From: Centroscyllium fabricii
Lineage: Eukaryota
Assembly (NCBI GenBank): GCA_051313645.2
Contig: JBNRSN020000014.1
Coordinates: 107,508,001 to 107,572,000 of the forward strand
Reading direction: 5' to 3'
Length of the DNA: 64,000 bases
Below, one piece after another: positions 1-48,919 of this stretch (position 1 is the first letter of the stretch; each line of letters starts with the position of its first letter). The notes beneath the pieces were generated by a model, which did not search any database, was not told the origin of the DNA, and saw nothing but the letters and a program-made list of their open reading frames with translations. A program made the position numbers and the translations under genes.

Positions 1-609
1 CCCATTAACACCGGAGATGCTGCCAGCTCCATTTTGCAGGGGGCTGAACGGTAGGTGTTCCAAGCGCCTGCCTGTTTCAGCTGATAGGCCCCTTCTAGTA
101 TGGAAACTGGACTATGACGTAAATAGGACCCCGATTGCCATTTTAGGTTGGAACTCAACGGAGCCTGCGCCATACGGTCACCGACCAGTTTCATGGGTGA
201 TGGAGCCGAAAGAAGAAAGATGTGCATTTCTACAGCGCTTTTCACAACCACTGGATGTCCCAAAGCACTTTACAGCCAATTAAGTACTTTTTAAAGTGCA
301 GTCACTGTTGTAATGTAGAAAACGTGTGACGATTCGTCAATGAATCAAAGACGAGTAGTTACCTTAACTATAGGCTTTTATTCGCTTTACAAAGGAGCTA
401 CGCTCCAGTCGAACATCGAGTACAGAATGAATGGGGGCAGGTCAGACCCCACCTATAAGGCTCTCACCTGAGGGGAGGAGTTAGAGGTGTGGCTGACCTG
501 ACCTCACGACAGTGTCATAATACAAAAACTATGTACAGTGCACCCAGCCGCTATACATGCTGGTTTACAGTGGTAATAACGGTTACCACATTCACCCCTT
601 CTTTGAAAA

Positions 610-3600
610 TTAAGTCTGGCGGGGTGAATGGACAGAACAGTTCATAATAAGTCTCTCCGGCGGTCGCGTCTGCCTTGAGGACCGCCGGGTTTCTGTTAGC
701 GGCGCTGGTGCCGGTAGTGTCGGCGGTGCTGGTGCCGGTAGTGTCGGCGGGGCCGGGTCCCCTGGCTGCTGCTGTGCCTGTGGTGTGGTGTCCGGTTCTT
801 GGTCCTCAGCTGGTAGTGGCGGGGGCTCCGGTGTGTGCGTGTGCATAGGCCAAAATCCGGTGGGTTGTGGTTGGTGTGTAGGCCGGTGGTCAGTAGGTAG
901 TGGCTGGTCGGGCTGAGGCTCGACCAGGGGCTCTGCTGTGCTGCTCCCGGCGGGCGCTAGGTCCCTGATGGAAACTGTGTCCTCGCGCCCGTCCGGGAGC
1001 TGCACGTATGCATACTGCGGGTTGGCATGCAGCAGCTGCATCTTCTCCACCAGGGGGTCGGTCTTATGGCCGCGGACATGTTTTCTAAGTAAGACCGGCC
1101 CCGGCATCGTGAGCCATGGTGGGAGTGCTGTCCCCGAGGTCGACTTCCTGGGGAAGGAAAAGAGCAATTCGTGAGGTGTGGCGTTGGTAGCCGTACACAG
1201 CAGAGAGCGGATGGAGTGCAGCGCGTCTGGGAGGACTGCCTGCCAACGGGACACTGGAAGGCCTCTGGACTTCAGGGCCAGGCTGACCGCCTTCCAGATG
1301 ATCCCGTTCTCCCTTTCTACCTGGCCGTTCCCCCGGGGGTTTTAACTGGTCGTTCTGCTCGAGGCAACCCCTTTCTGAAGCAGAAACTGACGCAGTTCGT
1401 CGCTCATGAACGACGACCCCCGGTCGCTATGGATGTAACTGGGGAGACCGAAAATGGCAAACAGCATGGTGAAGTGTTTGATCACCGTTGCGCTCGTCAT
1501 ATCTGGGCAGGTGAAGGCGAAGGGGAAGCGGGAGAACTCGTCTACGACCGTGAGGAAGTATGAGTTGCGGTCGGTGGAGGGGAGGGGGCCTTTGAAGTCC
1601 ACGCTTAGACGTTCAAAAGGGCGGGTGGCCTTAATGAGGTGTGCCGTGTCTGGCCTGTAAAATTGGGGTTTGCACTCGGCGCAAACAGGGCACTCTCGGG
1701 TCATAGCCTTGATCTCCGTGATGGAGTAGGGGAGGCTACGGGATTTAATGAAATGGGCAAGTCTGGTGACACCCGGGTGGCAGAGGCGATCGTGGTGTTC
1801 CTTCAGCCGGTCTAGCTGGGCACTGGCGCACGTTCCCCTGGACAGTGCATCCGGGGGTTCATTGAGTTTGCCTGGTCGGTAAAGAATGTCGTACTCGTAA
1901 GTCGAGAGCTCGATCCGCCACCGCAGGATCTTATCATTCTTGATTTTACCATTTTGTTTATTGTTAAACATAAACGCGACCGACCGTTGGTCGGTGAGCA
2001 GGGTAAAACGCTTACCGGCCAGGTAATGACGCCAGTAGCGCACGGCCTCCACGATAGCCTGGGCGTCCTTTTCCACTGCAGAGTGGCGAGTTTCGGGTCC
2101 CTGTATGGTGCGGGAGAAAAACGCTATGGGCCTGCCTGCCTGGTTCAGGGTGGCGGCAAGGGCAAAGTCCGAAGCGTCGCTCTCCACCTGGAAAGGGATG
2201 GACTCATCAACGGCGTGCATGGTCGCCTTGATAATATCTTCCTTGATCCGGGCGAACGCCGTGTGGGCTTCAACCGAGAGGGGGAAGACGGCATCCTTGA
2301 GGAGCGGTCTGGCCTTATCTGCGAACTGGGGAACCCATTGCGCGTAATAGGAGAAAAATCCCAGACTTCTCTTTAGGGCCTTGGGGTTGTGAGGTAGGGG
2401 CAGTTCCTGTAAGGGACGCATATGCTGTGGGTCGGGGCCAAGGACCCCGTTTTCCACTACATATCCGAGGATGGTGAGCCGATCTGTACTAAAGACGCAC
2501 TTGTCTTTATTGTACGTGAGATCGAACCGTTTCGCCATGTGGAGGAATTTGGCCAGGTTGGCATCGTGGTCCTGCTGATCATGGCCGCAGATGGTCATGT
2601 TATCTAGGTAGGGGAAAGTGGCCTGCAACCCGTTCTGGTCAACCATGCGGTCCATCTCCCTCTGGAATACCGACACTCCGTTGGTCACGCCGAAGGGGAC
2701 CCGGAGGACGTGGTAGAGCCGACCGTTCGCCTCGAACGCAGTGTACGGGCGGTCGGCTTTCCGGATCGGGAGTTGGTGATATGCCGACTTAAGGTTGATT
2801 GTGGAGAACACCTTGTACTGGGCGATCTGGTTAACCATTTCCGAGATGCGGGGAAGGGTGTAGGCGTCGAGCCCGGTGTAGCGGTTAATGGTCTGGCTGT
2901 AGTCGATCACCATCCACAGTTTCTCGCCAGTCTTAACCACTACGACCTGGGCCCGCCAGGGGCTGGTGCTGGCTTCAATTATCCCCTCCTGCAGCATACG
3001 CCCGACCTCCGAACTGATAAATGTCCGATCCCCTGCACTGTAACGCCGACTCTTAGTAGCAATGGGTTTGCAGTTTGGGTCGAGTTTGTCGAACAGTGAG
3101 GGTGGGTCGACTTTCAGGGTGGAAAGGCCGCAAGTCGGGCTCCGCTTTAGGAAGGGATTGTCCCGGCTACTGACGGTGAGGGGGGCCAGGGTCCCACCGA
3201 ACTCCATTGTCACGCTCTTCAGGTGGCACTGGAAATCCAGTCCCAGTAAGACTGGGGCGCACAACTGCTGGAGTATGTACAATTTAAAATTACGGTACAC
3301 GCAGTCCCTGACTGTGAGCGTGACGGAGCAGTAGCCGGTGACGTCCGCCGTGTGGAACTTTGAATCAAGGGAGATTTGGTAGTGTGTGGGCAGGGTCTGC
3401 AGTCCGTAGCGCTGCACTGTGTCGGGGTGAATGAAGCTCTCTGTGCTTCCGGTGTCGAACAGGCAGTTGGTGGTATGGCCGTTGACTTTAAACCCCATCA
3501 TGGAATTTGATAGGGTGTGCGGCCTAGCCTGGTCGAGCATGGCTGAGGCCGAAGTGTGTGTGCGTGTGTGGGAGCCCTCCGCTAGCCGGGGCCGTGCACA

Positions 3601-4836
3601 AGATGGCGGCGCCCGTGATTCGCACATGGCCGACCGCGGTGGGCAAGATGGCAGCACCGGGGAGTCGCACATGGCTGGCCGCTGAAGACAAGATGGCGGC
3701 GCCGGGGGGTCGCACATGGCTGGCCGCTGAGGACAAGATGGCGGCGCCCGTGATTCGCACGCGGCGGGCCGCTGTGGACGCGGTGGCGGTGCCCGTGGTT
3801 CGCACGCAGCGGGCCGCGGTGGCTGGGTTGGCGGCGCCCGTGATTCGCACGCAGCGGGCCGCGCTGGGCGAGATGCCGGCGTTGGGGGGTCGCACATGGC
3901 CGGCCGTGGCCGAGTTTGGCGTGCCGTGTGCGCGGCCGGCCTCTGCCGTATCAGGGTGGGCGATGGGGGCGCTTGTACTCTAGCCCCGGACCGTTGCTGG
4001 GTCGCGCTGCAACTGCAGCTTACCTGAGGCCAAGGGCCGGCGTTGGAGCTCACGCAGGCTGCGCTGTTGTGTCTGGAGTTGGGCGCTGGGGCCGATTTGC
4101 AGGCCCTGGCGTAATGTCCCTTTTTCCTACATTTCTCGCAGGTCGCGGTCCTCGCGGGGCATTTTGCTCACGGGTGTAGTCCCTGGCCGCAGAAATAACA
4201 TTTTCTATCCTCCGACGTCCTCGCAGCTGCCGCTGCCGTTGTGGGGGTCTCGACCCGTCGTGGGGCCGCCCAGGAGTCGAAGGTGGCTTGTGGGCCTTGG
4301 CCGCTATACGCCTCTAGTTTGCGGCATGCTCCATCCACTGCGTTGGAGATGGAGATTGCCTCTTCCAGCGATAGTGTTTCTTTCTCCAGCAGCCGCTGGC
4401 GGGCCTGGGCGGACCTGATCCCCGTCACGTAGGCGTCCCGGACGAGGAGTTTCGTCTCCTCCTGCGCCGTCCGTGCCTTGCAGTCACAGGCCCGGGCGAG
4501 GGCTTGGAGCGCCAACAGGTACTGTTCATTGGACTCACCAATTTGTTGTTGTCTGGTCGCCAGCACGTGTCTGGCATAGACCGACTGGACCGGGCGCACG
4601 TAGCATGCCTTCAGTTTCTCCACGGCTTCTGCGTACGTTTTAGCGTCGTGGATGAAGGAGTATACCCGGCTGGAGATCCTAGATGTGAGAACGTGGAGTT
4701 TGTTCCCGTCGGTTGTCGCCTTGGCGGCCTCCATGGAGGCCTCGACGAGACTGAACCAGTGTTCAAATGCATTGGCGGCGGCTGGGTCCTGTGGACTGAT
4801 GTCCAGCTTTTCGGGTTTCACAGCGCCGCTCTCCAT
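610..4836 (-). pseudogene. gag-pol polyprotein of element A (Gag zinc knuckle, protease, RT, RNase H, integrase); one frame with two premature stops
   Basis: ORFs 4168-4836, 1342-4053 and 610-1254 are in the same frame, with stops at 4168-4170 (HP*, likely CGA>TGA) and 1342-1344 (TS*NPRG). Motifs: CYFCG, LFDTGS, YLDN, ESDASD, HHCC, SVDFKG, HSDRG. Confidence 0.93.
3590..3905 (-). repeat. In-frame 45-bp (15-aa) tandem array, about 7 units, between Gag and protease
   Basis: RPAACESRAPPSCPQ-type units; four carry caagatggc(g/a)gc on +. Confidence 0.9.
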
Positions 4837-4846
4837 TTTAATTTTG

Positions 4847-4858
4847 AAGCGAATAAAA
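4847..4858 (-). promoter_or_regulatory. Non-tRNA PBS-position sequence complementary to LTR 4909-4920
   Basis: aagcgaataaaa (4847-4858) is the exact reverse complement of ttttattcgctt (4909-4920). Confidence 0.85.
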
Positions 4859-6321
4859 TTGACGTATCGTCAATGAATCAAAGACGAGTAGTTACCTTAA
4901 CTATAGGCTTTTATTCGCTTTACAAAGGAGCTACGCTCCAGTCGAACATCGAGTACAGAATGAATGGGGGCAGGTCAGACCCCACCTATAAGGCACTCAC
5001 CTGAGGGGAGGAGTTAGAGGTGTGGCTGACCTGACCTCGCGACAGTGTCGTAATACAAAAACTATGTACAGTGCACCCAGCCACTATACATGCTGGTTTA
5101 TAGTGTGCTTAACCATTACAGTGGTAATAATGGTTACCACAATGTGGCAGCTAATTTGCGCACAGCAAGCTCCCACAAACAGCAATGTGTTAATGACCAG
5201 ATCATCTGTTTTAGTGATGTTGATTGAGGGATAACTATTGGCTAGGACACTGGGAATAACTCCCCAGCTCTTCATCGAAATAGTGCTATGGGATCTTTTA
5301 CGTCCACCTGAGAGAGCAGATGGAGCCTCGGTTTAATATCTCATCTGAAAGACGACACCTCCGACAGTACAGCACTCCCTCAGTACTGCACTGGAGTGTC
5401 GGCCTAGATTTCTGTGCTCAAATCTCTGGAGTGGGACTTGAACCCACAACCTTCTGACTCAGAGGTGAGGGTGCTACCCATTAAGCCACAACTGAAAAAA
5501 GAGGCCCGCTAAAGATAAGTGTCGAATTATCTTCGCTGAGTGCTCCTACGGAGTCCACTAAAATAACCAGGGCTCTGCCAGCCCGGGATCTCCATCCTCT
5601 ACAATCGCAACTTACCTTGTGCCGCCCTGGCCCACTACTGAGGCCTCAATCCAGCGAGCTGCACTGGGATGCCTGTTCAATGCCCCGCAGCTCACCTGCC
5701 AAATTTAAATGAGGCCTGGGCCTCAAAACCGAGGAGGGCTCTTCGCCACCGGAGCAGGCGACCGACCAGCACCCTGGTCGGTCGCGCATAATCAAAATCG
5801 ATTCCTATGTGTGCGGATTTGAGGTGAGGACAGGTTTGAGCTCAGCTGTGGTGCACCTGTAAAGCATGTGAAAAATGGCCACTTGCGAGAGGCAACTGTA
5901 CACCAGCAAGGACCTTCAGGAGAATAGGAAAAGGAAGAGAAATTAATGGGAACAGCACAGTAAATCTTAGATAATAAAAAGGATGCTAAACTCAACTAAA
6001 AATCCAAAGAATGTGTTAAATAAATAATACCTGTGAACAATATCCCAATAATATATAGAGGCGATAAATTGGGCAATAATAATGGCCCGGAATTTGTGGT
6101 TGGAGGTGTACCTCCGGAGTACATCTCTGACAAAATTTAAAATAATCCACATCTAGATGGCGGCGTGCATAGACGCAGTGGCTTTGCGTCTCCCAAGATG
6201 ATGCTGTCCGCTGGTTGTTCCCGTACTGGTTCTGGGTCCGTTCGCCGGCGGGGTCAGTGTGGTAGAGCTCCGGGGTCACACCGAGGTTGACACACCTAGG
6301 CTGTCGTGGTCAGAGCGGCAG

Positions 6322-6789
6322 GGCCCGAATGGCTGGATCATCGGGGCCTGCGTGGCCGGAGCGCCGGGGCCCGAGTGGCTGGAACATCGGGGCCTGCGTG
6401 GCTGGAGCACTGGGGCCCGAGTGGCCAGAACATCGGGGCCTGCGTGGTCGAAGTGCCGGGGCTCGAGTGGCCGGAACATCGGGGCCTGTGTGGGTGGAGC
6501 ACTGGGGCCCGAGTGGCCGGAACATCGGAGCCTGCATGATCAAAACGCCGGGGCCTGAATGGCCGGTTCATCGGGGCTTGCATTTCTGGAACATCAGGGC
6601 CCGAGTGGTCGAAGCGCCGGGGCCTGAGTGACCGGAACATCAGGAGCTGTGTTTCCGGAACATCGGGGCCCGAGTGGTCGAAGCTCCGGGGTCCGAGTGG
6701 CCGGAACATCGGGGCCTGCGTGGCCGGAGCACCAGGGCCTGAGTGGCCGGAAAATCGGGGCTTGCGTGACCAGAGTGCCGGGGCCTGCG
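6322..6789. repeat. GC-rich minisatellite, 23-bp monomers alternating as a 46-bp dimer (about 20 monomers)
   Basis: gtggccggaacatcggggcctgc alternates with gtggccggagcgccggggcccga. Confidence 0.9.
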
Positions 6790-8729: not shown

Positions 8730-10432
8730 ATTCGGATCTTGGGCCTGCTGGCGTATGCCTGCGTAAATGTCCACGGATCCCAGGGACGCAGGCGTTTTGG
8801 AAGCATCCCTGGGATCTCGTGAGCCCGGTCCTCCAATCAGAAAGGAGGAATCATAATATGCTTATGGCTTTTCCAGTTACAAACGGAATCGCCATAAGCT
8901 TATTAGGAATCTCCAAATAATTAAATAATTTATACAACTGGAAAAAAATAATTGTTCCCATTTTCAAATTTACTTAAAAGTTCCTTCAATAAAGCATTTA
9001 CAATAAAAATGTAATTTTGGGAAAAATAATTTTAAACATTTTAATCCAGGCCAAAATTTACATAAACTGATTTTAAATGTTTGTGCATGATTATTTATTA
9101 AAATATTTTTAATTTAAGACTTATATTAACCCTCACACTGGTGAAAGCAGGCCCTGTACCTGCTTTTTCCAGGCGTAAGTGTTTTGTGGGCATTCGCTGG
9201 GCAGTAGTTGGGCAAATCGCCCAGCTCTGCACCAGCGGAAGTGATTTTTGGGTCGCTGCAGATGATCTGTCAAGGCGAATCTTGACATCGCAAGTTCCGG
9301 GTTTTCACTCCTGCACAGCGCATGTGGAAACCTGGAACTTGCGGGGCCTTTCTGATGGCTGTGTGTACGCCGTCATTGGGAGCACAAAATCTGGGCCAAT
9401 GTTTATGATCCCAAAATGATAACTTCTGTGTGAATTCAAGCCAAATTGCAAATTTAGTGCAAGTTCAAATAATAGTACTGTAACTGGATTTGTGTTTATT
9501 TTGGAGTATCTATTGCCACTGACAACAGCATTTGGAGCCCATCTTCCATTTTAACAAGGCCCAGAAACTTAAACCAATTTGATAAAAATGCTTTCGAAGA
9601 TCACAAGATAATAGGCCATTCAGCTCACCATAATTCATGCATCCAGCATGACCCTAAAGACTTTGACTGCAGTTTCCAATTGGTTCTTAAATGATTCCAG
9701 GATTTTCACCTCTGCTATATATGCGAGAGTCCATTCCGTGTACAGGAAACTCTTTGGTATCCGGCACCTATGGGAGCGGGATGGTGCCGGTTGATTAAAA
9801 ATTCCGGACAACGGAGAGGTATACCTACCAAGGTACAAGGGCCCCGTTACACAGCACACCTGTTACACCGCCACAGGTGCAGGAGCAGGAGTCCCTGTTA
9901 CATGGCCACAGCCACAGGAACCCCAGTTACACGGCCACAGATCCAGGAACCCCCAGTTACACGGCCACTAATATCCAGTAAAACTTACCTGAACCTACTC
10001 CTGAATGTTGCCGGTTAAGAGAGATTTCCGGATATTAGTGATACCATCAATTACTCGAGTCTGAGAGCAAGTTAACATAGGCTTTAATAAACTTAGAACA
10101 AGCGTAAGGGATCACAGGTATCGTTAGTACAGTACAGTAGAGAGGAGGTCAGAACCCACGAGTGCTGACCTTTATACCCCCAGGGTCAGAGGCGTGGCCT
10201 ACCCGAGGTCCTCCAGGTACAGGTCTCCCAAGTCTGGCTGGGCAAGAGTAGACACGCCCTAAGGCATGTACATACACATAGTTGGTGTTATAGCCAATAT
10301 CACCACATTCACCCCCTGTTAAAGAATTTCAGTACCAGGGGGGGCACAAACAATAACTAACATATGTACAGACAGTATTTACAAAGGTTCCGAGATGTTC
10401 CAAAAAAATTGTGGCCGCCTGTTCATGCCAGG

Positions 10433-13400
10433 TCACATTGAGCAGACCAGGCGGTCTGGCTGGCGTCGCACCCTCGACGACCGTCTGAGCTGCTGGTCCT
10501 GCCGTTCGGTATCGGTACCTGGGGAAGCCGAAGGAGTATACGTTAGCAGCGCGTCACCAGGGAATACAGCGGTATGGGTCGGTGGGGGGCTGGGCACGGG
10601 CTGCGATGTGGGTGGTGCCGGCTGGACCCACGACGAGAGGAAGGGGGGTGGGGGCGGAGTTGTGGTCGCGGGGGCGCCTGCGGGCGCCAGGTCTTTAATA
10701 GAGACTGTGTCCTTCCTGCCATCAGGGAACTCCACATAGGCGTACTGCGGGTTAGCATGGAGGAGGAGTACCCTGTCGACCAGTGGGTCGGTCTTATAGT
10801 GCCGTACATGGCGCCGCAACAGTACTGGGCCCGGGGAGGCTAGCCACGACGGCAGCGACATCCCCGAGACGGACTTCCTGGGGAAGGAAAACATCCGTTC
10901 GTGCGGCGTTGCGTTGGTCGCTGTACAAAGAAGCGACCGTACGGCGTGTAGAGCGTCCGAGAGAACCGCCTGCCAGCGTGAGGCTGGAAGGCCCCTGGAC
11001 CTGAGTGCCAGGCGGACCGCCTTCCAGACAGTGCCATTCTCGCGCTCTACTTGGCCATTGCCCCGGGGGTTGTAGCTCGTTGTCCTGCTCGACGAGATTC
11101 CTCTCGCGAGTAGGAACTGGCGCAGTTCGTCGCTCATAAAAGCAGACCCCCGGTCAGAGTGTATGAATGAGGGGAAGCCGAATATTGCGAATATCGGGGC
11201 GAGGGCGTTGATGACTGTGGCAGCAGTCATATCAGTGCAGGGTATCGCAAATGGGAAACGGGAGTATTCGTCCACGACTGTGAGGAAGTAGACATTCCTG
11301 TCGGTGGACGGGAGTGGGCCCTTAAAATCAATACTAAGGCGTTCGAAGGGCCGAGAGGACTTAATCAGGTGTGCCTTGTCCGGTCGGAAAAACTGCGGCT
11401 TGCATTCCGCACAGACCGGACAATCCCTGACTATCTCCCTAACCTCCGCAATACTATACGGTAGATTGCGGGCTTTGATAAAATGATAGAAGCGGGTGAC
11501 CCCCGGGTGGCAGAGGTTATTGTGCAGAGCCTGCAGTCTGCCCGCCTGCACGCTGGCGCAGGTCCCGCGGGACAGTGCATCAGACGGCTCGTTGAGTCTA
11601 CCTGGCCTGTACAAAATATCATAATTAAAGGTGGACAATTCGATCCTCCACCTCAAGATCTTATCGTTCTTAATTTTTCCCCGCTGTGTGTTACTAAACA
11701 TAAATGCTACCGACATCTGATCGGTGAGCAGGGTAAATTTTCTACCGGCCAGGTAGTGTCTCCAGTGGCGCACCGCTTCGATAATGGCTTGGGCCTCTTT
11801 TTCCACGGAGGAATGCCGTGCTTCCGAGCCCGAGAGGGTACGGGAAAAGAAGGCAACGGGTCTGCCTGCTTGGTTCAGGGTCGCCGCCAGGGCGAAGTCG
11901 GACGCGTCGCTCTCCACTTGGAAAGGCACGTCCTCATCAATGGCGGACATTGCCGCTTTTACTATATCGGCTTTAAGTTGCTTAAAAGCCGTTAGTGCCG
12001 CTGCCGACAGGGGAAAAACAGTGGCCCGCATCAGAGGCCGGGCTTTGTCCGCAAATTTCGGGACCCACTGCGCGTAATACACGAACAGCCCCATGCACCG
12101 CTTTAGAGCTTTGGGTGTCTTGGGAAGGGGATACTCAATCAGCGGGCGCATTCGGTCAGGGTCCGGGCCGATTAACCCGTTTTCCACCACACAGCCCAAA
12201 ATAGCCAGGCGTCTGGTGCGGAAAACACATTTTTCTTTGTTGTAGGTCAAATTCAGGGATTTGGCTGTTTTCAAAAATTTAGCGAGGTTCTCGTCGTGGT
12301 CCTCGTCCGAGTGGCCGCAGATGGTGACATTATCTAGATAGGGAAAGGTGGCCCTGAGCCCGTGTTCGTCTACCATTCTATCCATTTCCCTCTGGAAGAC
12401 GGACACTCCGTTCGTCACTCCGAAGGGAACCCGAAGGAACTGGTAGAGGCGACCATCCGCTTCGAAAGCGGTGTAGGGGCGCTCCTCTCTGGGGATTGGG
12501 ACCTGGTGATATGCCGCTTTAAGGTCTATAGTCGAATAGACTTTGTATTGGGCAATTTCATTTACCATGTCCGAGATCCGGGGAAGGGGGTACGCATCGA
12601 GGAGTGTAAACCGGTTTATGGTCTGACTGTAGTCGACCACCATCCTGTTCTTCTCCCCCGTCTTTACCACTACTACTTGGGCCCTCCAGGGGCTGCGGCT
12701 GGCTTCAATCACCCCCTCTGCCAACAGTCGCTTCACCTCGGTGCCAATAAACGCCCTGTCTGCAGCACTATACCGCCTGCTCTTTGAGGCAATCGGTGCG
12801 CAGTCCGGCGTGAGGTTCGCGAACAGTTTCGGGGGTGAGATCCGTAAAGTGGTGAGCCCACAAAGCGGGCGCTCACGGGGGGTACTCGACTCGACCGTCA
12901 GGGGTGGGAGAGGGCCGCCGTATACCAGGGTGACACACTGCAGGTGGCTCTGGAAATCGAGCCCCAATAACACTGGGGCGCACAAGTGGGGTAACACAAA
13001 CAGTTTAAAATTACAGTATTTTACCCCGCGAACTACAAGTGATACTTCGCAACACCCCACGGCCTGCGCCGATTCTGAGTCCGCCGCCAAGGCGATGCGT
13101 TTTAAACAGGGGCGGATCGACAAGCGAAGACGGTCAGCGGTCTCGGGGGAAATAAAACTATCAGTACTACCCGTATCAAATAAACAGTTACAGTTTTGTC
13201 CGTTTACCTGGACGTCCATCATTGATTTCTGCAGTTCATGGGGTTTTGATTGGTCCAAAGTGATGGACGCCAGCACGGTTGATGAGTCGTCTTCATCCGA
13301 ATATTCTGGGTCGGAGTCAATTCGAAGACTCTCAAAATGGCCGCTGCCTCGTGGTGATGAACTAAGATGGCCGCTCCTCCTAGCTGTGGCCTCAAGATGG

Positions 13401-14248
13401 CCGCCGCCTCGTGGTGCTCCCTCGCGGTCATCTACCTCCGTGTAGTAGGAACGTGGTGCCGCTCTCGCTCCGCTGCAGATGGGGGCTGTCTTCTTTTTCT
13501 GCCCTGTTGCGCGGCACATCGTGGCATAGTGCCCCTTCTTTCCACACCCCGAGCACGTAGCATCTTTGGCTGGGCAGCGCAGTCTAGAGTGCCTAGCTTT
13601 TCCGCAAAAGAAACACTTTTGGTTGGTTTCAGGCCTGCTTCTTCCTGCCGCTGCCGTTAGCGCTGGGGTAGGAGTTGGGGCTGGGGATGCCCACGTAGGC
13701 GCGCTTGGTTGGCCATACGTGGTGGATCTCCGATCTGCATTGTCCAGATTTACAATCAGGGAGGCTGCTTCTTTTAACGTTAGCTCATCCCGTTCTAGCA
13801 GTCGGGCCCTGATATATGGGGAGTATACCCCTCTTACCAGAGCGTCCAGTGCCAGTTCGTTGTAGTGTTCGTCCGCCGTCAGGGGGCCAGGGGCGCAATC
13901 TCGGGTCAGCGCACAAATTTCTTTCACGAATTTGGCGCCCGGTTCCTCGGCGCTCTGGGCTCTCTGAGTCAACACGTGCCTTGAGTGAACAGCGTTGGCT
14001 GCTGGCACAAATTGTTCTTTCAGTTTCTTCATGGCCTGTTCGTAATCCGACTCCCCTTCGATGAGGTGGTAATGGTCAGCACTGATTCTGCAGTGTAGAA
14101 TTCGGCTCTTCTGCTGATCAGTTGAAGCAGTCTCTTTCACTTCGTCGATATAGCTCCTCAGCTGCTGTTCCCAGTGTTTATACCGGCGTTCGGCATCGGG
14201 AGCAGTCGCATCAATTTCCAAGATCGGGACAGCCAGAATTCGGTCCAT
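10433..14248 (-). CDS. Single-ORF Gag-Pol polyprotein, 1271 aa (zinc knuckles, aspartic protease, RT, RNase H, integrase; no chromodomain seen)
   Basis: CFFCGKARH…CSGCGKKGHYATMC, LFDTGS, STIDL…PFG…YLDN, ESDASD/EKEA/TDQ, H-x4-H…CPVC, IDFKG…HSDRG…VERENG. Confidence 0.97.
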   Translation of the reverse strand: MDRILAVPILEIDATAPDAERRYKHWEQQLRSYIDEVKETASTDQQKSRILHCRISADHYHLIEGESDYEQAMKKLKEQFVPAANAVHSRHVLTQRAQSAEEPGAKFVKEICALTRDCAPGPLTADEHYNELALDALVRGVYSPYIRARLLERDELTLKEAASLIVNLDNADRRSTTYGQPSAPTWASPAPTPTPALTAAAGRSRPETNQKCFFCGKARHSRLRCPAKDATCSGCGKKGHYATMCRATGQKKKTAPICSGARAAPRSYYTEVDDREGAPRGGGHLEATARRSGHLSSSPRGSGHFESLRIDSDPEYSDEDDSSTVLASITLDQSKPHELQKSMMDVQVNGQNCNCLFDTGSTDSFISPETADRLRLSIRPCLKRIALAADSESAQAVGCCEVSLVVRGVKYCNFKLFVLPHLCAPVLLGLDFQSHLQCVTLVYGGPLPPLTVESSTPRERPLCGLTTLRISPPKLFANLTPDCAPIASKSRRYSAADRAFIGTEVKRLLAEGVIEASRSPWRAQVVVVKTGEKNRMVVDYSQTINRFTLLDAYPLPRISDMVNEIAQYKVYSTIDLKAAYHQVPIPREERPYTAFEADGRLYQFLRVPFGVTNGVSVFQREMDRMVDEHGLRATFPYLDNVTICGHSDEDHDENLAKFLKTAKSLNLTYNKEKCVFRTRRLAILGCVVENGLIGPDPDRMRPLIEYPLPKTPKALKRCMGLFVYYAQWVPKFADKARPLMRATVFPLSAAALTAFKQLKADIVKAAMSAIDEDVPFQVESDASDFALAATLNQAGRPVAFFSRTLSGSEARHSSVEKEAQAIIEAVRHWRHYLAGRKFTLLTDQMSVAFMFSNTQRGKIKNDKILRWRIELSTFNYDILYRPGRLNEPSDALSRGTCASVQAGRLQALHNNLCHPGVTRFYHFIKARNLPYSIAEVREIVRDCPVCAECKPQFFRPDKAHLIKSSRPFERLSIDFKGPLPSTDRNVYFLTVVDEYSRFPFAIPCTDMTAATVINALAPIFAIFGFPSFIHSDRGSAFMSDELRQFLLARGISSSRTTSYNPRGNGQVERENGTVWKAVRLALRSRGLPASRWQAVLSDALHAVRSLLCTATNATPHERMFSFPRKSVSGMSLPSWLASPGPVLLRRHVRHYKTDPLVDRVLLLHANPQYAYVEFPDGRKDTVSIKDLAPAGAPATTTPPPPPFLSSWVQPAPPTSQPVPSPPPTHTAVFPGDALLTYTPSASPGTDTERQDQQLRRSSRVRRQPDRLVCSM
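13330..13420 (-). repeat. Three 30-bp in-frame repeats (xxRxxGH[LF]xx) with YY1-type motifs
   Basis: aaaatggccgc, aagatggccgc and aagatggccgcc on + at 30-bp spacing. Confidence 0.8.
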
Positions 14249-14267
14249 TTTTGGATTTTAGCGACGA

Positions 14268-14282
14268 TCTAAGTTTATTAAA
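14268..14282 (-). promoter_or_regulatory. Non-tRNA PBS-position sequence complementary to LTR 14328-14342
   Basis: tctaagtttattaaa vs tttaataaacttaga, a perfect 15-bp inverted repeat. Confidence 0.9.
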
Positions 14283-14850
14283 TTGATACCATCAATTACT
14301 CGAGTCTGAGAGCGAGTTAACATAGGCTTTAATAAACTTAGAACAAGCGTAAGGGATCACAGGTATCGTTAGTACAGTACAGTAGAGAGGAGGTCAGAAC
14401 CCACGAGTGCTGACCTTTATACCCCCAGGGTCAGAGGCGTGGCCTACCCGAGGTCCTCCAGGTACAGGTCTCCCAAGTCTGGCTGGGCAAGAGTAGACAC
14501 GCCCTAAGGCATGTACATACACATAGTTGGTGTTATAGCCAATATCACCACAATTAGGTGCCGTTTAAACGAGAGTTTCCTGTACTGATCACTCTTTGTG
14601 TCAAGAAACACTTCTTGACATCAGTCCTAAAATTGTCTGTTGCAAGTTAAAACTTGTGATTCTAAGGGCTAGAAATTGGTCTTGGGCGGTGGCTGCAATG
14701 GAACTGAATATCAGGTGCTGTGTATAAGGGGTGGCCAATCCGATACCACCTGTTTTACGCCACTGTCTGAGACCAATTCCTAGGCCTTTAAATGGTTTAA
14801 TTGAAAGTAATTTTCCAGAGTTACCTATTCCATTGCATTTTATCGAGCTG

Positions 14851-21963: not shown

Positions 21964-23654
21964 ATAGATTTCAAGAATGTTTATCATTTCACTGGCTCAC
22001 ACAAATGAATACAGACTAATTATCAAACTGATGTGAGCTCCGAGTGCTTGTTTAAGTGTTCTCTTGCCTACTCTAGTGCTTTGACGAGGTGTTCCCCCAG
22101 TGCTGCAGCACAGGCATTGCAAGGCTGCTGTGGCCCAGTCAAGAACTCCTGAGATGCTTTCTGGTCAGCAGCCTTTGGTTGAGGGGCCACGGGGGTGCAG
22201 ACATGCTATCGTCCTCATGTTTCATTCCCTTTACATGACTGCCCCAGCAACTCAGCACTCACAGTGATATGTGGGAGAGCAGGCTGATGATCTGAATGAA
22301 ACCCCTATCATTCTGGCTCCTAGTTTGGCCATGGTGGAAGAAATGGTGGAGTCCAGAGCCTATATGGCTTCTGTATGAACGTCCCTGAGAGAAGTTGCTA
22401 CTGATACCTAGGCAAGGAGGGCCCAGCTGCTGTGTTCTTTGAGGTGACCACGCAGACCATGGTTGAACGCTGAGTATCAATGCCATGCGCAAGAGCCCCG
22501 CACACTCTTCCACACTCTGATATTTTGTGGAAACTCCCTGACAGGAGGTCCAATGTATTCAGCAGTTGCTGGTAAATAGGAAACATTTTTCTTCTGAAGG
22601 CTGGGCCACTAAAGTCTGCATTTCTTTTCTCTTTGGCAGAACTAGGACGTGAGTTTGACCTCATGTAAGCAGCTTCCTCGCCTGTCCTTTCCACCTGCTC
22701 CATCACGTGCTCAGTAAATCAAGCAGTGAAGACCCTTCTTATGCACTATCTTTACCACATGCGATCTGATTTCTATGCTAACACTTGGAAAGGTATTATC
22801 GAGTGACAATTCATCTTTGAGTTGGTCATCCTGCTATGTCGGTGTTGCTTCAGGCCGTCAGTCATTAGAATATAAGAATTAGAAGCAGGAGTAGGCCAAA
22901 CAGCCCCTCGGGGTAATATTTACTAAAGCGGTTCGGGAGGTTTTAAACTAGTATGGCAGGGGGGTGGGAACCTAGGTAGTGGAAAAGAGGGAGGTCATAG
23001 GAAGCCAGAAATAAATGGTAGGAAGGTGAGAAGCAATAAGCAAGGGAGAGAAACACAAAGGGCCAAACTTATTCATAATAGTGTGATCAAAACAAGCCTA
23101 AAGGCTTTGTATCTTAATGCAAGAAGCATTAGGAACAAGGTGGATGAACTAGCTGTTGAAATAGAGGTAAGCAAATATGAGTTGATTGGAATTACGGAAA
23201 CATAGCTGCAGGGTGGGCAAGGCTGGGAACTCAACATCCCGGGGTATACAACATTCAGAAAGGATCGGCACAAAAGAAAGGGAGGTGGGGTGGCATTGCT
23301 GGTGAAAGAGGGGATAAATGCAATTGAAAGGAAGGATATTAACTCAGATGATACGGAATCTATATGGGTAGAACTAAGAAATAGTAAAGGGCGGAAAACA
23401 TTTGTGGGAGTTATATACAGGCCTCCAAATAATAATATGGAGGTGGGGGACGGCATAAAAAGGGAAATTAGAGAAGCGTGCAATAAGGGCACAGCTGTCA
23501 TCATGGGCGACTTTAATCTACATATTGATTGGACCAGCCAAATTAGTAAAAATACTGAGGAGGAGGAATTCCTAGAATGTTTACGGGACGGTTACCTGGA
23601 CCAATACGTCGAGGAACCAACTCGGGATCAGGCCATCTTAGACTGGGTATTGTG

Positions 23655-28271: not shown

Positions 28272-28465
28272 TATAAAATGTACCAGGATGCCCAACATAC
28301 GAATCTCTAAGAAGGGCTTTCCTAAGTCTAGTTAAATGTTATAATTATTTTGTTTGTATTGTTATTAATATACTATTTTTTGTATATTACAATGCTTTGG
28401 CAACAACGGTGGATACCATTCATGCCAATAAAGCTATTTGAATTTGAATTTGAATTTGAATTTGA
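28272..28465 (+). mobile_element. 3' end of a non-LTR retrotransposon with (tttgaa)n tail (possibly RTEX-like), inserted in CR1
   Basis: ccattcatgccaataaagcta(tttgaa)n; related copy on - at about 53487-53880. Confidence 0.6.
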
Positions 28466-28697
28466 GTGGTGGGCCTGTGGAATTCCTTGCCACAGAGGGC
28501 GGTGGAGGCCAGTTCATTAAACATATTCAAGAGGGAATTGGATATATTTCTTCAAGCTAAAGGGATTAAAGGTTACGGAGAAAAGGCGGGGACGGGGTAC
28601 TAGCTTGCTAAAGATCAGCCATGATCTCATTGAATGGCGGAGCAGGCTCGAAGGGCTGAATGGCCTACTCCTGCTCCTATCTTCTATGATTCTATGA

Positions 28698-37456: not shown

Positions 37457-37749
37457 TGACGTATCGTCAATAAGACTAAAGACGAGTAGTTACCTTAACT
37501 ATAGGCTTTTATTAACTTAACGATGGAGCTAGCCTCCATACGAACATCAGGCACAGAATGACTGGGGGCAGGGCAGACCTCACCGATAAGGCTCCCACCT
37601 GAGGGGAGGAGTTAGAGGTGTGGCTGACCTGGCCTTACAACCGTGTTCTACATCCAATACATCCAATGCACCAAGCAACTATATACATGGGTCATGTGGT
37701 GCAGTACAACTACAATCCAACTATATACAATGGTAATATGATTACCACA
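37457..37749 (-). mobile_element. Solo LTR, element-A family, inserted in a CR1 remnant
   Basis: tgacgtatcgtca…ttaccaca; TSD attgt. Confidence 0.92.
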
Positions 37750-43850: not shown

Positions 43851-44315
43851 TTGATAGTATCATTTAAAAGAGAAATGGGCAGGTTCCTAATTTGACAAAG
43901 AATAAAAGATACAAAACTTAGATAAAGGAGGAAATTAAAAATGGTCAATGAATGAGCTTTTTGAAAGTGAGGTAAACAGTCTGAGCTAGATTGGTTGCAC
44001 TGCCTTTAGCGATAAAGTACCTCCCCAATAAACAGCGAAGACATATCCGGAGGACACTGTGGTAACCCTTATATGGTTACCATTACCTTATATGGCTACC
44101 ATTGTATAAGTGCCATTGTACTGCTGGGAGCCAGGTCAGCCACATCCTCGACTCCTCCCCAGGTGGGGACACCGATATAAGGTGTGGCCAGACCCAGCCC
44201 CTTCATTCTTGTATGTGAACTTGTAAAAAGACTAGCTCCATTCTTTATCAATTAAAAGCCTTGTATTTCAGTACTAACAAGTCACCTTTTAATTGAGTTA
44301 GCGACTACGCTACAA

Positions 44316-44329
44316 TTTTAATTGATAAA
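44316..44329 (+). promoter_or_regulatory. Non-tRNA PBS-position sequence complementary to LTR 44244-44257
   Basis: ttttaattgataaa vs tttatcaattaaaa, a perfect 14-bp inverted repeat. Confidence 0.9.
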
Positions 44330-44335
44330 CTTAAA

Positions 44336-47300
44336 ATGGAGAGCAGCACGTTAAAACCTAGGGAGCTGGACATTAGCCCCCAGGATGATGCGGCACCAGC
44401 TACCTTCAAGCACTGGTTTGGATTACTAAAGGCCTATATGGCAGCAGCCAAGGCTACCACGGACGAGGACAAACTCCAACTCCTGCTATCCAGGGTCTCC
44501 AGCAGGGTTTTCACCCTTGTCGAGGACCTTACAACCTACGAGGAAACGGTGACGACCCTCAAACAGTACTATGAGCGCCCGGTCCACTCTGTCTACGCCC
44601 GCCACCTACTAGCGACCCGATCTCAACTACCCGGTGAGTCAAACGACCAGTTTGAGCAAGCGCTCCGGGGCATGATACGGGCCTGTGGCTGCAAGGGTGG
44701 ATTGACCAAGGCACAGGAAGAAAACATCCTCCTCCGGGACGCCTATGTCTCAGGACTAAGATGTGCAGTAGCCCGTCAGAGGCTACTGGAAAAGGACAAT
44801 CTGACCCTTGAGGAGGCAACCACGTTAGCCAAATCGGTGGAGGGGGCCCGGAATAAATCGCAGACGTACGGTGGTACCAGCCATCAAGTCTACAACATAT
44901 GGGCCGCACCACAACAGGCGTCACGGATTGAGAGCCCCACGACGGCCGCGACGGCCACCACGGACACTAAGCTCAAACACTGCTATTTCTGCGGCCAAGG
45001 ATTGCACCCCAGAGCAAAATGCCCAGCCAAGACGGCGACCTGCGAAAAATGCTCCAAGAAGGGACACTTCGCCAAAGCCTGCAGAGCCACTCCAGCCACA
45101 GCATCTAAAAGGTACAACAGTGCAGTCTGTGAGAGCAACCATCACCAGGTAAGCTGCATTTGCAGTGCTATTCAGCGACGGCAAGCGCCCCCACCTCGAT
45201 GCAGCGGCAACCGGCCAAACGCGAGCTTACAACGCAGCCGGCTGCGTGCGAATCACGGGCACCGCCAACCCGACCACCGCGGTTCGCTGCGTGCAAATCA
45301 CGGGCGCTGCCAGCGCGTTCACCGCGGCTCGCTGCGTGCGAATCACGGGCACCGCCAGCGCGTTCACCGCGGTTAGCTGCGTGCGAATCACGGGCACCGC
45401 CAGCGCGTTCACCGCGGTTCGCTGCGTGCGAATCACGGGCACCGCCAGCGCGTTCACCGCGGTTCGCTGCGTGCGAATCACGGGCACCGCCAACGCATCA
45501 GAGCCCCGCAGTAACGCTACCCCGCAACCCAGGCCCCTCCATGTGTGAACCACGGAAGACGCCATCTTGCGCCCAGGGCTCCTCCATGTGCGAGCCAAGG
45601 GCGGCGCCATTTTGTACCCGGGGCCCCTCCATGTGCGAGTCAAGGGCGGCGCCATTTTGTACCCAGGGCCCCTCCATGTGCAAGCCAAGGGCGGCACCAT
45701 TTTGTATCCAGGGCCCCTCCATGTGCGAACCATGGGCGGCGCCATTTTGTGCACAGTCCCCATCAGCAGGGGCTGCTACAACTACAGTCAGCCAAAGCAA
45801 GCCCCATCACTTGTCTAATTCATTAATACGTATTAGGATTAATAACCATACCGTCGACTGCCTTCTCGACACGGGCAGTACCGAGAGTTTCATTCACCCT
45901 GATACAGTGCGGCGTTTCGGGCTGCAGGTCCTGCCCACCAACTACCAAGTGTCCCTAGCTTCACAGTCCCACACCGCGGACGTCACCGGCTACTGCTCCG
46001 TCACGCTCACCGTCCAGGGACGCGTGTACCGCAATTTTAAATTCTATACCCTCAAAAAGTTGTGTGCCCCAGCCTTACTAGGCTTGGATTTCCAGTGCCA
46101 CTTCAAGAGCGTGACCATGGAGTTCGGCGGGACTTTACCCCCCCTCACCCTCAGTAGCCGGGACAATCTCCCCCCGAAGCGGACCCCGGCCTGCGGCCTC
46201 TCCACCCTGAAAATCGACCCCCCATCGCTGTTCGCCAACCTCGACCCAAAGTGCAAACCAATCGCCACTAAGAGTCGGCGGTACAGTGAGGGGGGTCGCA
46301 CGTTTATCAGGTCGGAGGTCGGGCGGATGCTGAAGGAGGGGATTATTGAAGCCAGCACCAGCCCCTGGCGCGCCCAAGTTGTAGTGGTGAAGTCTGGTGA
46401 GAAACAATGGCTAGTGATCGACTATAGCCAGACTATCAACCGCTACACCGGGCTCGACGCCTACCCCTTCCCCGCATCTCAGAAATGGTCAACCAGATCG
46501 CCCAGTACAAGGTGTTCTCCACAATCGACCTTATGTCGGCGTATCATCAGCTCCCGATTCGGAAAGCCGACCGCCCCTACACCGCCTTCGAGGCGAACGG
46601 TCAGCTCTACCACTTTCTCCGGGTCCCCTTTGGCGTGACCAACGGAGTGTCCGTGTTCCAGCGGGAGATGGACCGTATGGTTGACCAGAATGACTTGCAG
46701 GCCACCTTCCCCTACCTGGACAACGTGACCATCTGCGGCCACGACCAGCAGGACCACGATGCCAATCTGGCCAAATTCCTCGCCACGGCGGCTAAGCTGG
46801 ACCTTACGTATAACAAAAACAAGTGTGTCTTTAATACAACCCGGCTCGCCATCCTCGGATACGTGGTGGAGAACGGGCTCCTCGGCCCCGACCCACAGCG
46901 TATGCGACCCCTGCTAGAACTGCCCTTACCTCACAACCCCAAAGCCTTGAGGAGATGCCTAGGATTTTTCTCCTACTATGCACAATGGGTCCCACAGTTC
47001 GCAGATAAGGCTAGACCACTCCTCAAGGCTGCACTCTTCCCCCTTTCTATAGAAGCCCAAAAGGCATTCGAAAAGATAAAGGAAGATATCATCAAGGCGA
47101 CCATGCTCGCTGTTGATGAATCCATCCCTTTCCAGGTGGAGAGTGACGCTTCGGACTTTGCTCTTGCTGCCACCCTGAATCAGGCAGGCAGGCCCGTAGC
47201 GTTTTTCTCCCGCACCTTACAGGGACCCGAGACTCGCCACTCTGCAGTGGAAAAGGAGGCCCAGGCCATCGTGGAGGCCGTGCGCTACTGGCGTCATTAC

Positions 47301-48785
47301 CTGGCCGGTAAGCGTTTTACCCTGCTCACCGACCAACGGTCGGTGGCGTTTATGTTTAATAATAAACTACGGGGTAAAATCAAGAATGATAAGATCATGC
47401 GGTGGCGGATCGAACTCTCGACTTACGAGTACGACATTCTTTACCGACCAGGCAAACTCAACGAACCCCCGGACGCACTGTCCAGGGGAACGTGCGCCAG
47501 TGCCCAGCTAGACCGGCTGAAGGATCTCCATGACCGCCTCTGTCACCCGGCTGTCACCAGATTAGCCCATTTCGACAAATCACGTAGCCTCCCCTACTCC
47601 ATCACGGAGATCAAGGAGATGACCCGAGATTGCCCTGTCTGCGCCGAGTGCAAACCCCACTTTTTCCGGCCAGACACGGCGCACCTCATTAAGGCCACCC
47701 GCCCCTTTGAACGTCTCAGCGTGGACTTCAAAGGCCCCCTCCCCTCCACCGACCACAACTCATACTTCCTCACGGTAGTGGATGAGTTCTCCCGCTTCCC
47801 CTTCGCCTTCCCCTGCCCAGATATGACGAGCGCAATGGTGATCAAACACTTCACCACGCTGTTCGCCATCTTCGGTCTCCCCAGCTACATCCATAGCGAC
47901 CGGGGGTCATCGTTCATGAGCGATGAACTGCGCCAGTTTCTGCTCCAGAAAGGGGTTGCCACGAGCAGGACGACCAGTTATAACCCCCGGGGGAACGGCC
48001 TGGTAGAAAGGGAGAATGGGATCATTTGGAAGGCGGTCACCCTGGCTCTCAAGTCCAGAGGCCTTTCAGTGTCCCATTGGGAGGCAGTCCTCCCAGACGC
48101 GCTGCACTCTATCAGGTCATTATTATGTACTGCTACTAATGCCACCCCGCACGATCTTGTTTTTTCCTTCAACAGGAAGTCAACTTCGGGGACGGCGCTC
48201 CCACCATGGCTGACGACTCCGGGGCCGGTTTTCCTTAAGCGGCACATTCGGTGCCACAAGACGGACCCCCTGGTGGACAAGGTACAGCTCCTACACGCCA
48301 ACCCCCACTATGCCTTTGTGCAGTTCCCAGACGGGCGTGAGGACACCGTGTCCATCAGGGACCTGGCCCCGGCTGGAAACACCGCCACAGCGCCTCCTGC
48401 TGGCCAGCAGGTCGACCTACCACCAGACACAAGATGGGCCCCGAGTTTCCCCGCCGATGCACCAGACGATGAGGTCCAGCAGAACCCACCACGTCCAGAA
48501 CTTACAGCACCAACGGAGGCGGGCTATTCGACTATGGAGGCATCACCACCAACACCGGAACCCCGGCGGTCCGCAAGACAAACGCGACCGCCGGAGAGAC
48601 TGATTATGAACTGTTCCGTACATTCACCCCCCCCGGACTCAAAGTTTTTAAGAAGGGGTGAATGTGGTAACCCTTATATGGTTACCATTACCTTATATGG
48701 CTACCATTGTATAAGTGCCATTGTACTGCTGGGAGCCAGGTCAGCTACACCCTCGACTCCTCCCCAGGTGGGGACACCGATATAA
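44336..48785 (+). pseudogene. gag-pol of element C with frameshifts at about 45190 and 46470
   Basis: ORFs 44336-45376, 45160-46638 and 46485-48785 align with the single frame of element A; LLDTGS, YLDN, RNase H and integrase motifs present. Confidence 0.92.
45235..45755 (+). repeat. Two adjacent 45-bp in-frame arrays (6 plus 5 units)
   Basis: RLAACESRAPPARSP x6 then GPSMCEPRAAPFCTQ x5; the second array carries (g/a)ccat(c/t)ttg. Confidence 0.92.
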
Positions 48786-48919
48786 GGTGTGGCCAGACCC
48801 AGCCCCTTCATTCTTGTATGTGAACTTGTAAGGAGACTAGCTCCATTCTTTATCAATTAAAAGCCTTGTATTTCGGTACTTACGAGTCGCCTTTTAATTG
48901 AGTGAGCGACTACGCTACA

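Follow-up and report, generated by a model that had tools for sequence, protein, structure and literature searches.

A Predicted Helix between the Primer Site and the Poly(A) Signal in a Clade of Ty3/Gypsy Retrotransposons of Centroscyllium fabricii

The window analysed here is a stretch of 64,000 nucleotides (nt) from the genome of Centroscyllium fabricii (contig JBNRSN020000014.1), in which a full-length Ty3/Gypsy long terminal repeat (LTR) retrotransposon, element B, lies together with two relatives, A and C (Table 1). In the clade to which they belong, the primer site following the 5' LTR is complementary to a segment of the same LTR that ends in the poly(A) signal, and, by analogy with known elements, the balance tips, if only gently, towards this helix masking the 5' poly(A) signal and, once cut, priming reverse transcription without a tRNA. 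Self-priming in some form, summed over the three forms weighed below, appears likely, because the primer site changes along with the LTR of each element and occupies the place where minus-strand synthesis has to begin. The overall design of B is otherwise ordinary; its two oddities, which are uncoupled, are the clade-wide poly(A)-signal hairpin and a labile but dominant YxDN motif in the reverse transcriptase (RT).

The Hairpin between the Primer Site and the Poly(A) Signal

In A, B, and C the leader is, from position +2, the exact reverse complement of an LTR segment of 12, 15, and 14 bp, respectively, a length that was reached by none of 2000 shuffles of each leader (mean 6.2-6.4). In all three the LTR arm ends in AATAAA or ATTAAA, followed by GCC; this identity of the arm with the poly(A) signal had been overlooked by the first-pass annotation, a reading of the bare letters in which the hairpin itself had been noticed. 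The comparison was extended to 40 loci with a YLDN motif (picked for codon diversity from the first 3 Mb of one contig, and therefore not random) and 20 with YLDD. An LTR pair with a recognisable end was given by 32 of these 60 loci; A, B, C, and seven relatives found on marine metagenome or contaminant contigs were added to them, giving a set of 42 elements. The stem begins at leader +2 in 38/42 and is at least 10 bp long in 34/42, and a tRNA-type TGG does not occur in the first 8 leader nt of any of the 42 (no tRNA library was searched), in agreement with the tRNA-independent primer site that had been proposed at first. The hexamer AATAAA or ATTAAA is present in 40/42 elements, 23-61 nt before the LTR end, and its partner in the leader switches to match; the remaining two, L100 and L111, carry altered hexamers and were left out of the pair count. 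The first leader base is A in 39/40 elements, and GCC follows the hexamer in 32/40.

At positions 8-14 of 37 distinct arm pairs, 5.62 of the 7 positions are paired within an element vs. 3.52 between elements, a difference not reached in any of 20,000 permutations. As many as four pair types are seen at one position, and two rows are out of register by one, which lowers the score. A chance complementarity of leader and LTR was therefore rejected on the basis of both shuffles and covariation and, since the site covaries with the element's own LTR arm, no single host RNA fits it.

The stem is 15 bp long in all of 20 close sisters of B, and the hairpin is also found in relatives sharing about 56-66% identity with B in the RT-RNase H (RH) region. 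The stem at +2 is also retained in a divergent and decayed family of this genome that is genuinely YLDD: among 13 copies it measures 15 bp in four and 10, 7, and 6 bp in one each, the other six being without a recognisable 5' end. The hairpin is thus a clade-wide trait.

When the RNA was folded in its 5' context, the probability of the hexamer being unpaired was 0.01-0.06 in five elements out of five; in the 3' context it was 0.59-0.81 in four out of five. With the hexamer hidden at the 5' end and free at the 3' end, only the 3' signal would be used. Such a 5'-specific masking (4/5), together with the coincidence of arm and hexamer (40/42), would also be expected if the hairpin did nothing else than suppress 5' polyadenylation, perhaps shaping the translation of the 21-35 nt leader, while another primer was used; the poly(A) hairpin of human immunodeficiency virus type 1 (HIV-1) has a similar suppressing role. 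This explanation seems improbable, since a stem starting at exactly +2 is not needed for masking, there is no TGG site, and the arm fills the only place next to the LTR from which minus-strand synthesis could start.

Two further complementarities were observed in the unique 5' region (U5) of the LTR. A second complement of the hexamer region occurs at window positions 44258-44314 (element C) and in L098, L117, L125, L141, L143, L144, L147-L149, and L154; it switches with AATAAA/ATTAAA and could form an alternative poly(A) hairpin at both ends. In addition, A, B, C, and most families of the shark type carry a small hairpin at the extreme U5 end (4860-4874, 14284-14298, and 44298-44314), which competes with the main stem or nests in it.

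Transcription Start and Position of the Arm

A TATA box lies 72-88 nt before the hexamer in 28/40 elements, and in 24 of these 28 an initiator (Inr)-like A is found at +28 to +33 from it; TCAxTY occurs in 18 of the 28, vs. 21 of 558 background windows. TATA and Inr were recognised by their consensus motifs. The distance from the Inr to the hexamer end is constant (48-56 nt). The RNA would start about 50 nt before the hexamer end, and the arm would be preceded by a 5' tail of about 37-50 nt.

Chromodomain-bearing Gypsy elements of the same genome were used as a control, four of the eight fetched giving a full LTR pair. Their 11-bp arm runs from 29-30 nt after the TATA box, i.e., from the predicted cap; its distance from the LTR end is 410-460 nt, and it does not coincide with the poly(A) signal. 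This is the layout to be expected of Tf1-type priming, in which nt 1-11 of the RNA serve as the primer (PMC7175516, passages compared). A further 20 Gypsy-like loci were compared; where an LTR pair was present, the stem did not exceed 7 bp, and most of these loci had a TGG site. Judging from these sequences, the predicted primer architecture of the clade differs from both that of the chromodomain self-primers and that of the tRNA-type Gypsys. The control elements (L177, L179, L182, and L183) are themselves young, with LTR identities of 99.5-99.8% and a Tf1-like 11-bp self-primer, so that two self-priming designs, the chromodomain type and that of the B clade, would coexist in the C. fabricii genome.

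Phylogenetic Position and Comparison with Known Systems

Relatives of B carry the source names of cnidarians, nematodes, an insect, a spider, a gastropod, a tunicate, and several sharks and rays, the closest named homologs being from sharks and rays; none was found among viral contigs, where the single pattern match (L096) is unrelated phage DNA. The clade forms one branch with support 100 in a tree of 122 rows, which bears out the distinct Gypsy lineage claimed by the first-pass annotation. In a mixture-model tree of 29 rows, the clade (100/100) is joined with two elements, one of them tRNA-primed and with two zinc knuckles (94/92), and the chromoviruses are joined with other tRNA-primed elements (95/94). 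The approximately unbiased (AU) test did not reject a grouping of clade and chromoviruses (p = 0.19); both are long branches, and the references were chromoviruses of this genome.

The last result would be compatible with an ordinary Tf1/sushi self-priming, in which the arm would mark the start of the RNA and the clade would be a side branch of the chromoviruses that has no chromodomain; the relatives from outside the genome, in which no TATA box places the start, can also be read in this way. The evidence makes this quite improbable: in the best tree the clade groups with Mag-like elements that are tRNA-primed and have two knuckles, while the chromoviruses group with other tRNA-primed elements, TATA and Inr lie 37-50 nt ahead of the arm, and the chromoviruses of this genome have their arm at TATA+30, distant from both the LTR end and the poly(A) signal. 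An origin of self-priming independent of Tf1/sushi is favoured rather than demonstrated.

The Mag group (SURL/C-clade), to which the nearest branch is tentatively assigned, shares with the clade two CCHC knuckles and a single long open reading frame (ORF). L171 and L162 are presumed from their features to be Mag-like; L171 differs in its TGG tRNA-type site and its YLDD motif, and the RT-RH identity is about 30%.

In the passages compared, Tf1 is described as lacking a tRNA site and having a primer site complementary to its own LTR, with a cut by RNase H being proposed (PMC7175516, PMC4600332) and with nt 1-11 of the RNA as the primer (PMC7175516). The own-LTR primer site and the missing tRNA site are shared by the clade with Tf1/Tf2 (S. 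pombe), Tj1 (S. japonicus), and Tf1/sushi elements in general. The clade differs from them in that the arm (12-16 nt) is predicted to lie 37-50 nt inside the RNA, coincides with the poly(A) signal, and is 23-61 nt from the LTR end; moreover, there is no chromodomain, there are two CCHC knuckles, and the branch is a separate one in the best tree. Self-priming has also been predicted from LTR-leader complementarity for the plant elements Tcn1 (gypsy) and TAR (copia), and for 12% of plant elements (PMC6317226); these belong to other lineages, and no link to the poly(A) signal is made in the passages of PMC6317226 compared.

The clade may already be named, e.g., as Cigr-1 or MolGy. The tabulated features of Cigr-1 (two CCHC, integrase after RNase H, GPY/F lost, no chromodomain, no env), an element of Ciona whose clade also occurs in molluscs, match those of B (PMC2774666), and the clade studied here is likewise present in a tunicate and a gastropod. 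The protease label TANG is not evident in B, the comparison having been made with the tabulated description and not with the sequence, and neither a priming mechanism nor YxDN is mentioned for Cigr-1/MolGy in the passages and tables compared. Passages of PMC2864245, PMC3601003, PMC3670739, and PMC6238403 were compared as well. In the literature searched (here and below, that outside Repbase, GyDB, and the subscription journals), no description was found of the clade, its priming, natural YxDN Gypsy RTs, or a YLDN or YXDN reverse transcriptase in general; that on shark genome expansion contained nothing on the clade, and the name "Selfy" was not found in connection with Gypsy.

The YxDN Reverse Transcriptase

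The motif YLDN is present in A, B, and C, its asparagine aligning with the second aspartate of YLDD in the Ty3 RT. A degenerate motif count returned 222,611 YLDN vs. 445 YLDD matches in the whole genome (control 0), i.e., one RT-motif match per 32 kb; this would correspond to about 14-15% of the 7.21-Gb genome if each were a full element of 4.5-4.9 kb, a figure that truncated copies would lower and in which mutated motifs and solo LTRs are missed. All 150 scored matches to the RT core of B (159 aa) are 100% identical to it, and the 30-mer spanning its LTR-leader junction occurs in at least 4517 copies. The sisters of B (the first 20 minus-strand matches fetched) are 99.3-99.8% identical to it and all carry YLDN; 13 have a full ORF, 16 perfect target-site duplications (TSDs), and 11 identical LTRs. 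Both the copy number and these sisters corroborate the recent activity of YLDN elements that had been suggested at first. Among the 14 full-ORF copies of B, shared variants are 20 synonymous vs. 9 non-synonymous (singletons, 31 vs. 38), and between B and nine other elements the proportion of non-synonymous differences (pN) is 0.13-0.27 and that of synonymous ones (pS) 0.73-0.93. The YLDN RT-RNase H is therefore under purifying selection. Because of copy number and selection, there is strong reason to infer from these sequences that YLDN elements replicate on their own, in cis, and an interpretation of YLDN as decay was rejected on the same grounds and on the identity of the B copies.

The distribution of the motif was followed among homologs. 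The best 120 of near-full length comprise 93 YxDN, 25 YxDD, and 2 without a call, and the best 120 shorter ones 76, 26, and 18, respectively. The tree of the 122 ingroup rows, calculated with FastTree without the motif column and restricted to rows that have a motif call and at least 300 aligned residues, shows 11 D/N changes, 10 of them forced by starred branches; YxDD is found in 25/122 members, including the deepest rows. No residue of the 122-row alignment tracks the change (best difference 0.51). Since D and N flip repeatedly, YxDN is a frequent, labile state and not the definition of the clade. It is not coupled to the poly(A)-signal hairpin.

The equivalent mutant of Ty1, D211N, has its kpol cut 223-fold; it polymerises in vitro and transposes only in the presence of RNase H suppressors (PMC2148107, passages compared). 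Both enzymes carry asparagine at the second aspartate of YXDD, and that of Ty1 still works in vitro; the laboratory mutant, however, is slow and non-transposing, whereas here YxDN is the natural majority state of a successful clade. This success would imply a distributed compensation for YxDN.

The inability of Ty1 D211N to transpose (PMC2148107) might suggest that the YLDN elements are defective and depend for their movement on YxDD relatives acting in trans, of which the genome harbors a genuine family and one unbroken copy (L097, 1429 aa). Mobilisation by such helpers, raised by the first-pass annotation as what would speak against its proposal, is very unlikely given the YLDN and YLDD counts, a ratio of about 500 to 1. 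In addition, decay is evident in the sampled copies of the true YLDD family (7 copies, longest ORF 806 aa), the YLDN RT-RNase H is under purifying selection, and YxDN occurs in 93/120 and 76/120 homologs, from several animal phyla.

At L102, L108, and L115, members of the clade lie head-to-tail or nested within 6.6 kb, reflecting its density.

A Possible Self-Priming Mechanism

On the preferred interpretation, transcription would begin about 30 nt downstream of the TATA box, with some 50 nt left up to the hexamer end. A segment of 12-16 nt whose last bases are A(A/U)UAAA would then pair with the leader from +2 onward, as the covarying complementarity suggests, closing a loop of 23-61 nt that holds the LTR end; according to the folding, the 5' copy of the hexamer would be paired and the 3' copy mostly unpaired. 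If Tf1 is taken as a model, the RNase H of the element might cleave on the 3' side of the hexamer, just before the conserved GCC, so that a 3'-OH remains one base from the LTR end. Starting there, RT would copy the loop, which is short, and then transfer to the 3' end via the stretch between GCC and the poly(A) site. The YLDN RT would support such a replication in cis. Both primer and cut site are predictions from sequence and folding. No LTR chimera marking a strand-transfer zone was found among the 31 elements compared (one candidate, L149, turned out to be a 10-nt deletion), and no polyadenylated retrocopy of the B LTR was found. The "own priming mechanism" of the first-pass annotation would thus survive as a variant of Tf1-type self-priming, not as a new principle.

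Several observations weigh against this interpretation. The cutting by RNase H of a duplex with a 5' tail of 40-50 nt is assumed by analogy, and the Tf1 primer consists of nt 1-11. The permutation test ignores relatedness, which inflates its significance. In element C the hexamer is paired in the 3' context too (0.00 unpaired), through the second U5 complement, and such a complement exists in 13/40 elements; masking is therefore not simply restricted to the 5' end. L038 and L040 have a second AATAAA in the loop. The four TATA elements without an Inr match are B's own family, in the region scanned, and 7/7 relatives from outside the genome have no TATA. Moreover, no single compensating residue was found for YxDN, and the equivalent change stops the transposition of Ty1 (PMC2148107, passages compared). 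Lastly, the loop measures 23 nt in L043 and 32-38 nt in others; short loops leave little homology for the jump, which fits better with priming from the 3' copy.

In this latter scheme the identical arm in the 3' repeat region (R), on the same or a co-packaged RNA, would anneal to the primer site, the tail past the hexamer would be removed, and RT would copy to the cap, the 40-50 nt ahead of the arm serving as R for the jump. It draws on the same complementarity, explains the constant distance between Inr and hexamer end, and tolerates very short loops such as that of L043. On the other hand, the 5' hairpin, forming in cis as the RNA is transcribed, would already be occupying the site, and the poly(A) tail would have to be removed exactly at the duplex edge, for which no precedent was found in the literature searched. 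Priming from the 3' copy is thus unlikely, although it deserves more credit than the other alternatives.

The YY1-like Repeats

B carries three YY1-like motifs with a 30-nt period, and A and C carry three and four, respectively, in 45-nt repeats; the array that had been described as common to the three is confirmed as to the motifs, that of B consisting of only three. The label follows the YY1 consensus. In the 30 elements with landmarks (12 lacked them), the motif [CG]GCCATNTT occurs 92 times in 15.6 kb of spacer between gag and protease (PR) vs. 14 times in the other 108 kb, and a single copy is oriented the other way; at least one motif is present in 26/30 elements and at least two in 19/30. 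The three landmark-bearing relatives from outside the genome have no motif and short spacers, the true YLDD family also lacks the array and has a short spacer, and the spacer is 44-54 aa long in 46/53 protein homologs. From these sequences, the array appears to be confined to the subclade of the shark type, as a later, lineage-restricted addition at the DNA/RNA level.

The array is translated as GHL in B and as PS/PF in A-type families; since the reading frame differs, a protein motif was rejected and the constraint would act on the nucleic acid. The array is likely regulatory, and by analogy its orientation would suit an antisense promoter or a silencing platform. No description of YY1 arrays in this clade was found in the literature searched. 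A single YY1-like motif was also observed in the LTR of some array-less relatives (L036:380-395, L105, L185, L187, and L189), 30-110 nt from the LTR end or the hexamer.

Hairpin, YxDN, and array had been regarded as linked traits of one system. They do not co-segregate across relatives, which was the first-pass annotation's own test: a fifth of the clade (25/122) has YxDD, the genuine YLDD family keeps the hairpin without the array, and the relatives from metagenome or contaminant contigs keep hairpin and YLDN without it.

Element B, Its Neighbours, and Other Features of the Window

B is an intact, recently multiplied Ty3/Gypsy retrotransposon, its integrity and youth having been correctly perceived at first: the ORF of 1271 aa (14248-10433) is unbroken, the LTR pair differs at one position, and the 5-bp TSD CTAAT is perfect. 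Its Pfam domain order is gag-PR-RT-RH-integrase (IN), the best PDB match is the Ty3 RT (E 6e-51), and the catalytic residues are all there except for motif C. As already noted from the letters, there is no chromodomain (no Chromo match in a Pfam search of B); GPY/GPF is absent from the translated C-terminus, and env from the single gag-pol ORF. Of the usual Gypsy features, TG..CA LTRs, a short TSD, and a polypurine tract are present, and YxDD and a tRNA site are not. A single-sequence structure model (predicted local distance difference test score 35) was too low in confidence to be used.

A and C are older members of other families. The LTRs of the three differ from each other and their leaders are short (23, 35, and 21 nt in A, B, and C), both as originally stated; the single gag-pol frame claimed for all holds for B, that of A being one frame with stops and that of C being frameshifted. 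The TSD of C is perfect; that of A has one mismatch, and its 5' LTR is 20 nt longer.

Table 1. Features of elements A, B, and C and of a related solo LTR (window positions).
Feature	Position	Strand	Remarks
Element B, full-length Ty3/Gypsy LTR retrotransposon	10039..14552	-	4514 bp
B 5' LTR	14284..14552	-	269 nt, TG..CA; TSD copy CTAAT 14553-14557
B 3' LTR	10039..10307	-	TSD copy 10034-10038
B TATA box (TATAAA)	14416..14421	-	start predicted ~29-30 nt downstream, near 14391
B hairpin LTR arm	14328..14342	-	ends in poly(A) hexamer ATTAAA (14328-14333); predicted self-primer
Cut in B arm	between 14328 and 14327	-	predicted
B primer-binding-site position, leader +2..+16	14268..14282	-	exact complement of LTR arm; no TGG
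B single gag-pol ORF, 1271 aa	10433..14248	-	Gag, two CCHC knuckles, PR, RT, RNase H, IN
B two CCHC zinc knuckles	13514..13615	-	
B three YY1-like motifs	13331..13416	+	AANATGGCC on +, antisense to element; 30-nt period, gag-PR spacer
B RT motif C, YLDN	12329..12340	-	aa 637-640; motif A aspartate intact
B RNase H	11567..11914	-	D-E-D-D residues present
B integrase	11033..11524	-	HHCC and D-D-E residues
B polypurine tract	10308..10325	-	ends in GGGGTGAA; common to A, B, C, and relatives
Element A	327..5141	-	broken by stops; arms 4909-4920, 4847-4858; YLDN 2599-2610; 45-nt array 3598-3906
Element C	44058..48919	+	frameshifted; arms 44244-44257, 44316-44329; YLDN 46713-46724; 45-nt arrays 45241-45496, 45527-45750
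Solo LTR of A-type family	37457..37749	-	TSD ATTGT; inside apparent CR1 remnant

Elsewhere in the window, two tandem long interspersed nuclear elements (LINEs) with a FADD motif, 84-88% identical and with short repeats at their 3' ends, are located at 23437-28700; from their translation, we take them to be of the CR1 type. Two related copies, at 61085-63967 and about 39467-41135, have a nuclease ORF (63170-63967), presumably Harbinger/PIF-like, and a second ORF facing it. A GC-rich minisatellite with a 23-nt unit and a higher-order period of 46/69 nt occupies 6321-6785. As for the data compared, host contamination is evident in three assemblies filed as bacterial (G001, G002, and G003, source of L037-L045), where many retrotransposons of animal type occur (RT matches: 82 in G001 and 133 in G002). 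The sequencing runs X2, X4, and X7, labelled as three different organisms, contain contigs about 99% identical to B, which may reflect a shared species, contamination, or transfer.

Implications

Self-priming has been demonstrated by experiment for elements of fission yeast; elsewhere it is a prediction. The broadest claim that might be made here is that an animal-wide Gypsy clade, none of it in print, invented poly(A)-signal self-priming independently of Tf1/sushi, with one helix setting both the RNA end and the DNA start and with a natural two-aspartate RT, thereby building about one seventh of a 7.2-Gb vertebrate genome; taken as a whole, it is tentative and rather doubtful. If true, it would represent a second self-priming architecture in animals, in which an internal primer doubles as the poly(A) signal; it would widen the range of retroelement escapes from tRNA dependence and would remove the difficulty posed by having poly(A) signals at both ends. 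How far the third RT carboxylate is needed could be tested with a natural YxDN enzyme that replicates well, since the same change stops Ty1. The clade is, at about one seventh, a major component of the mass of this genome.

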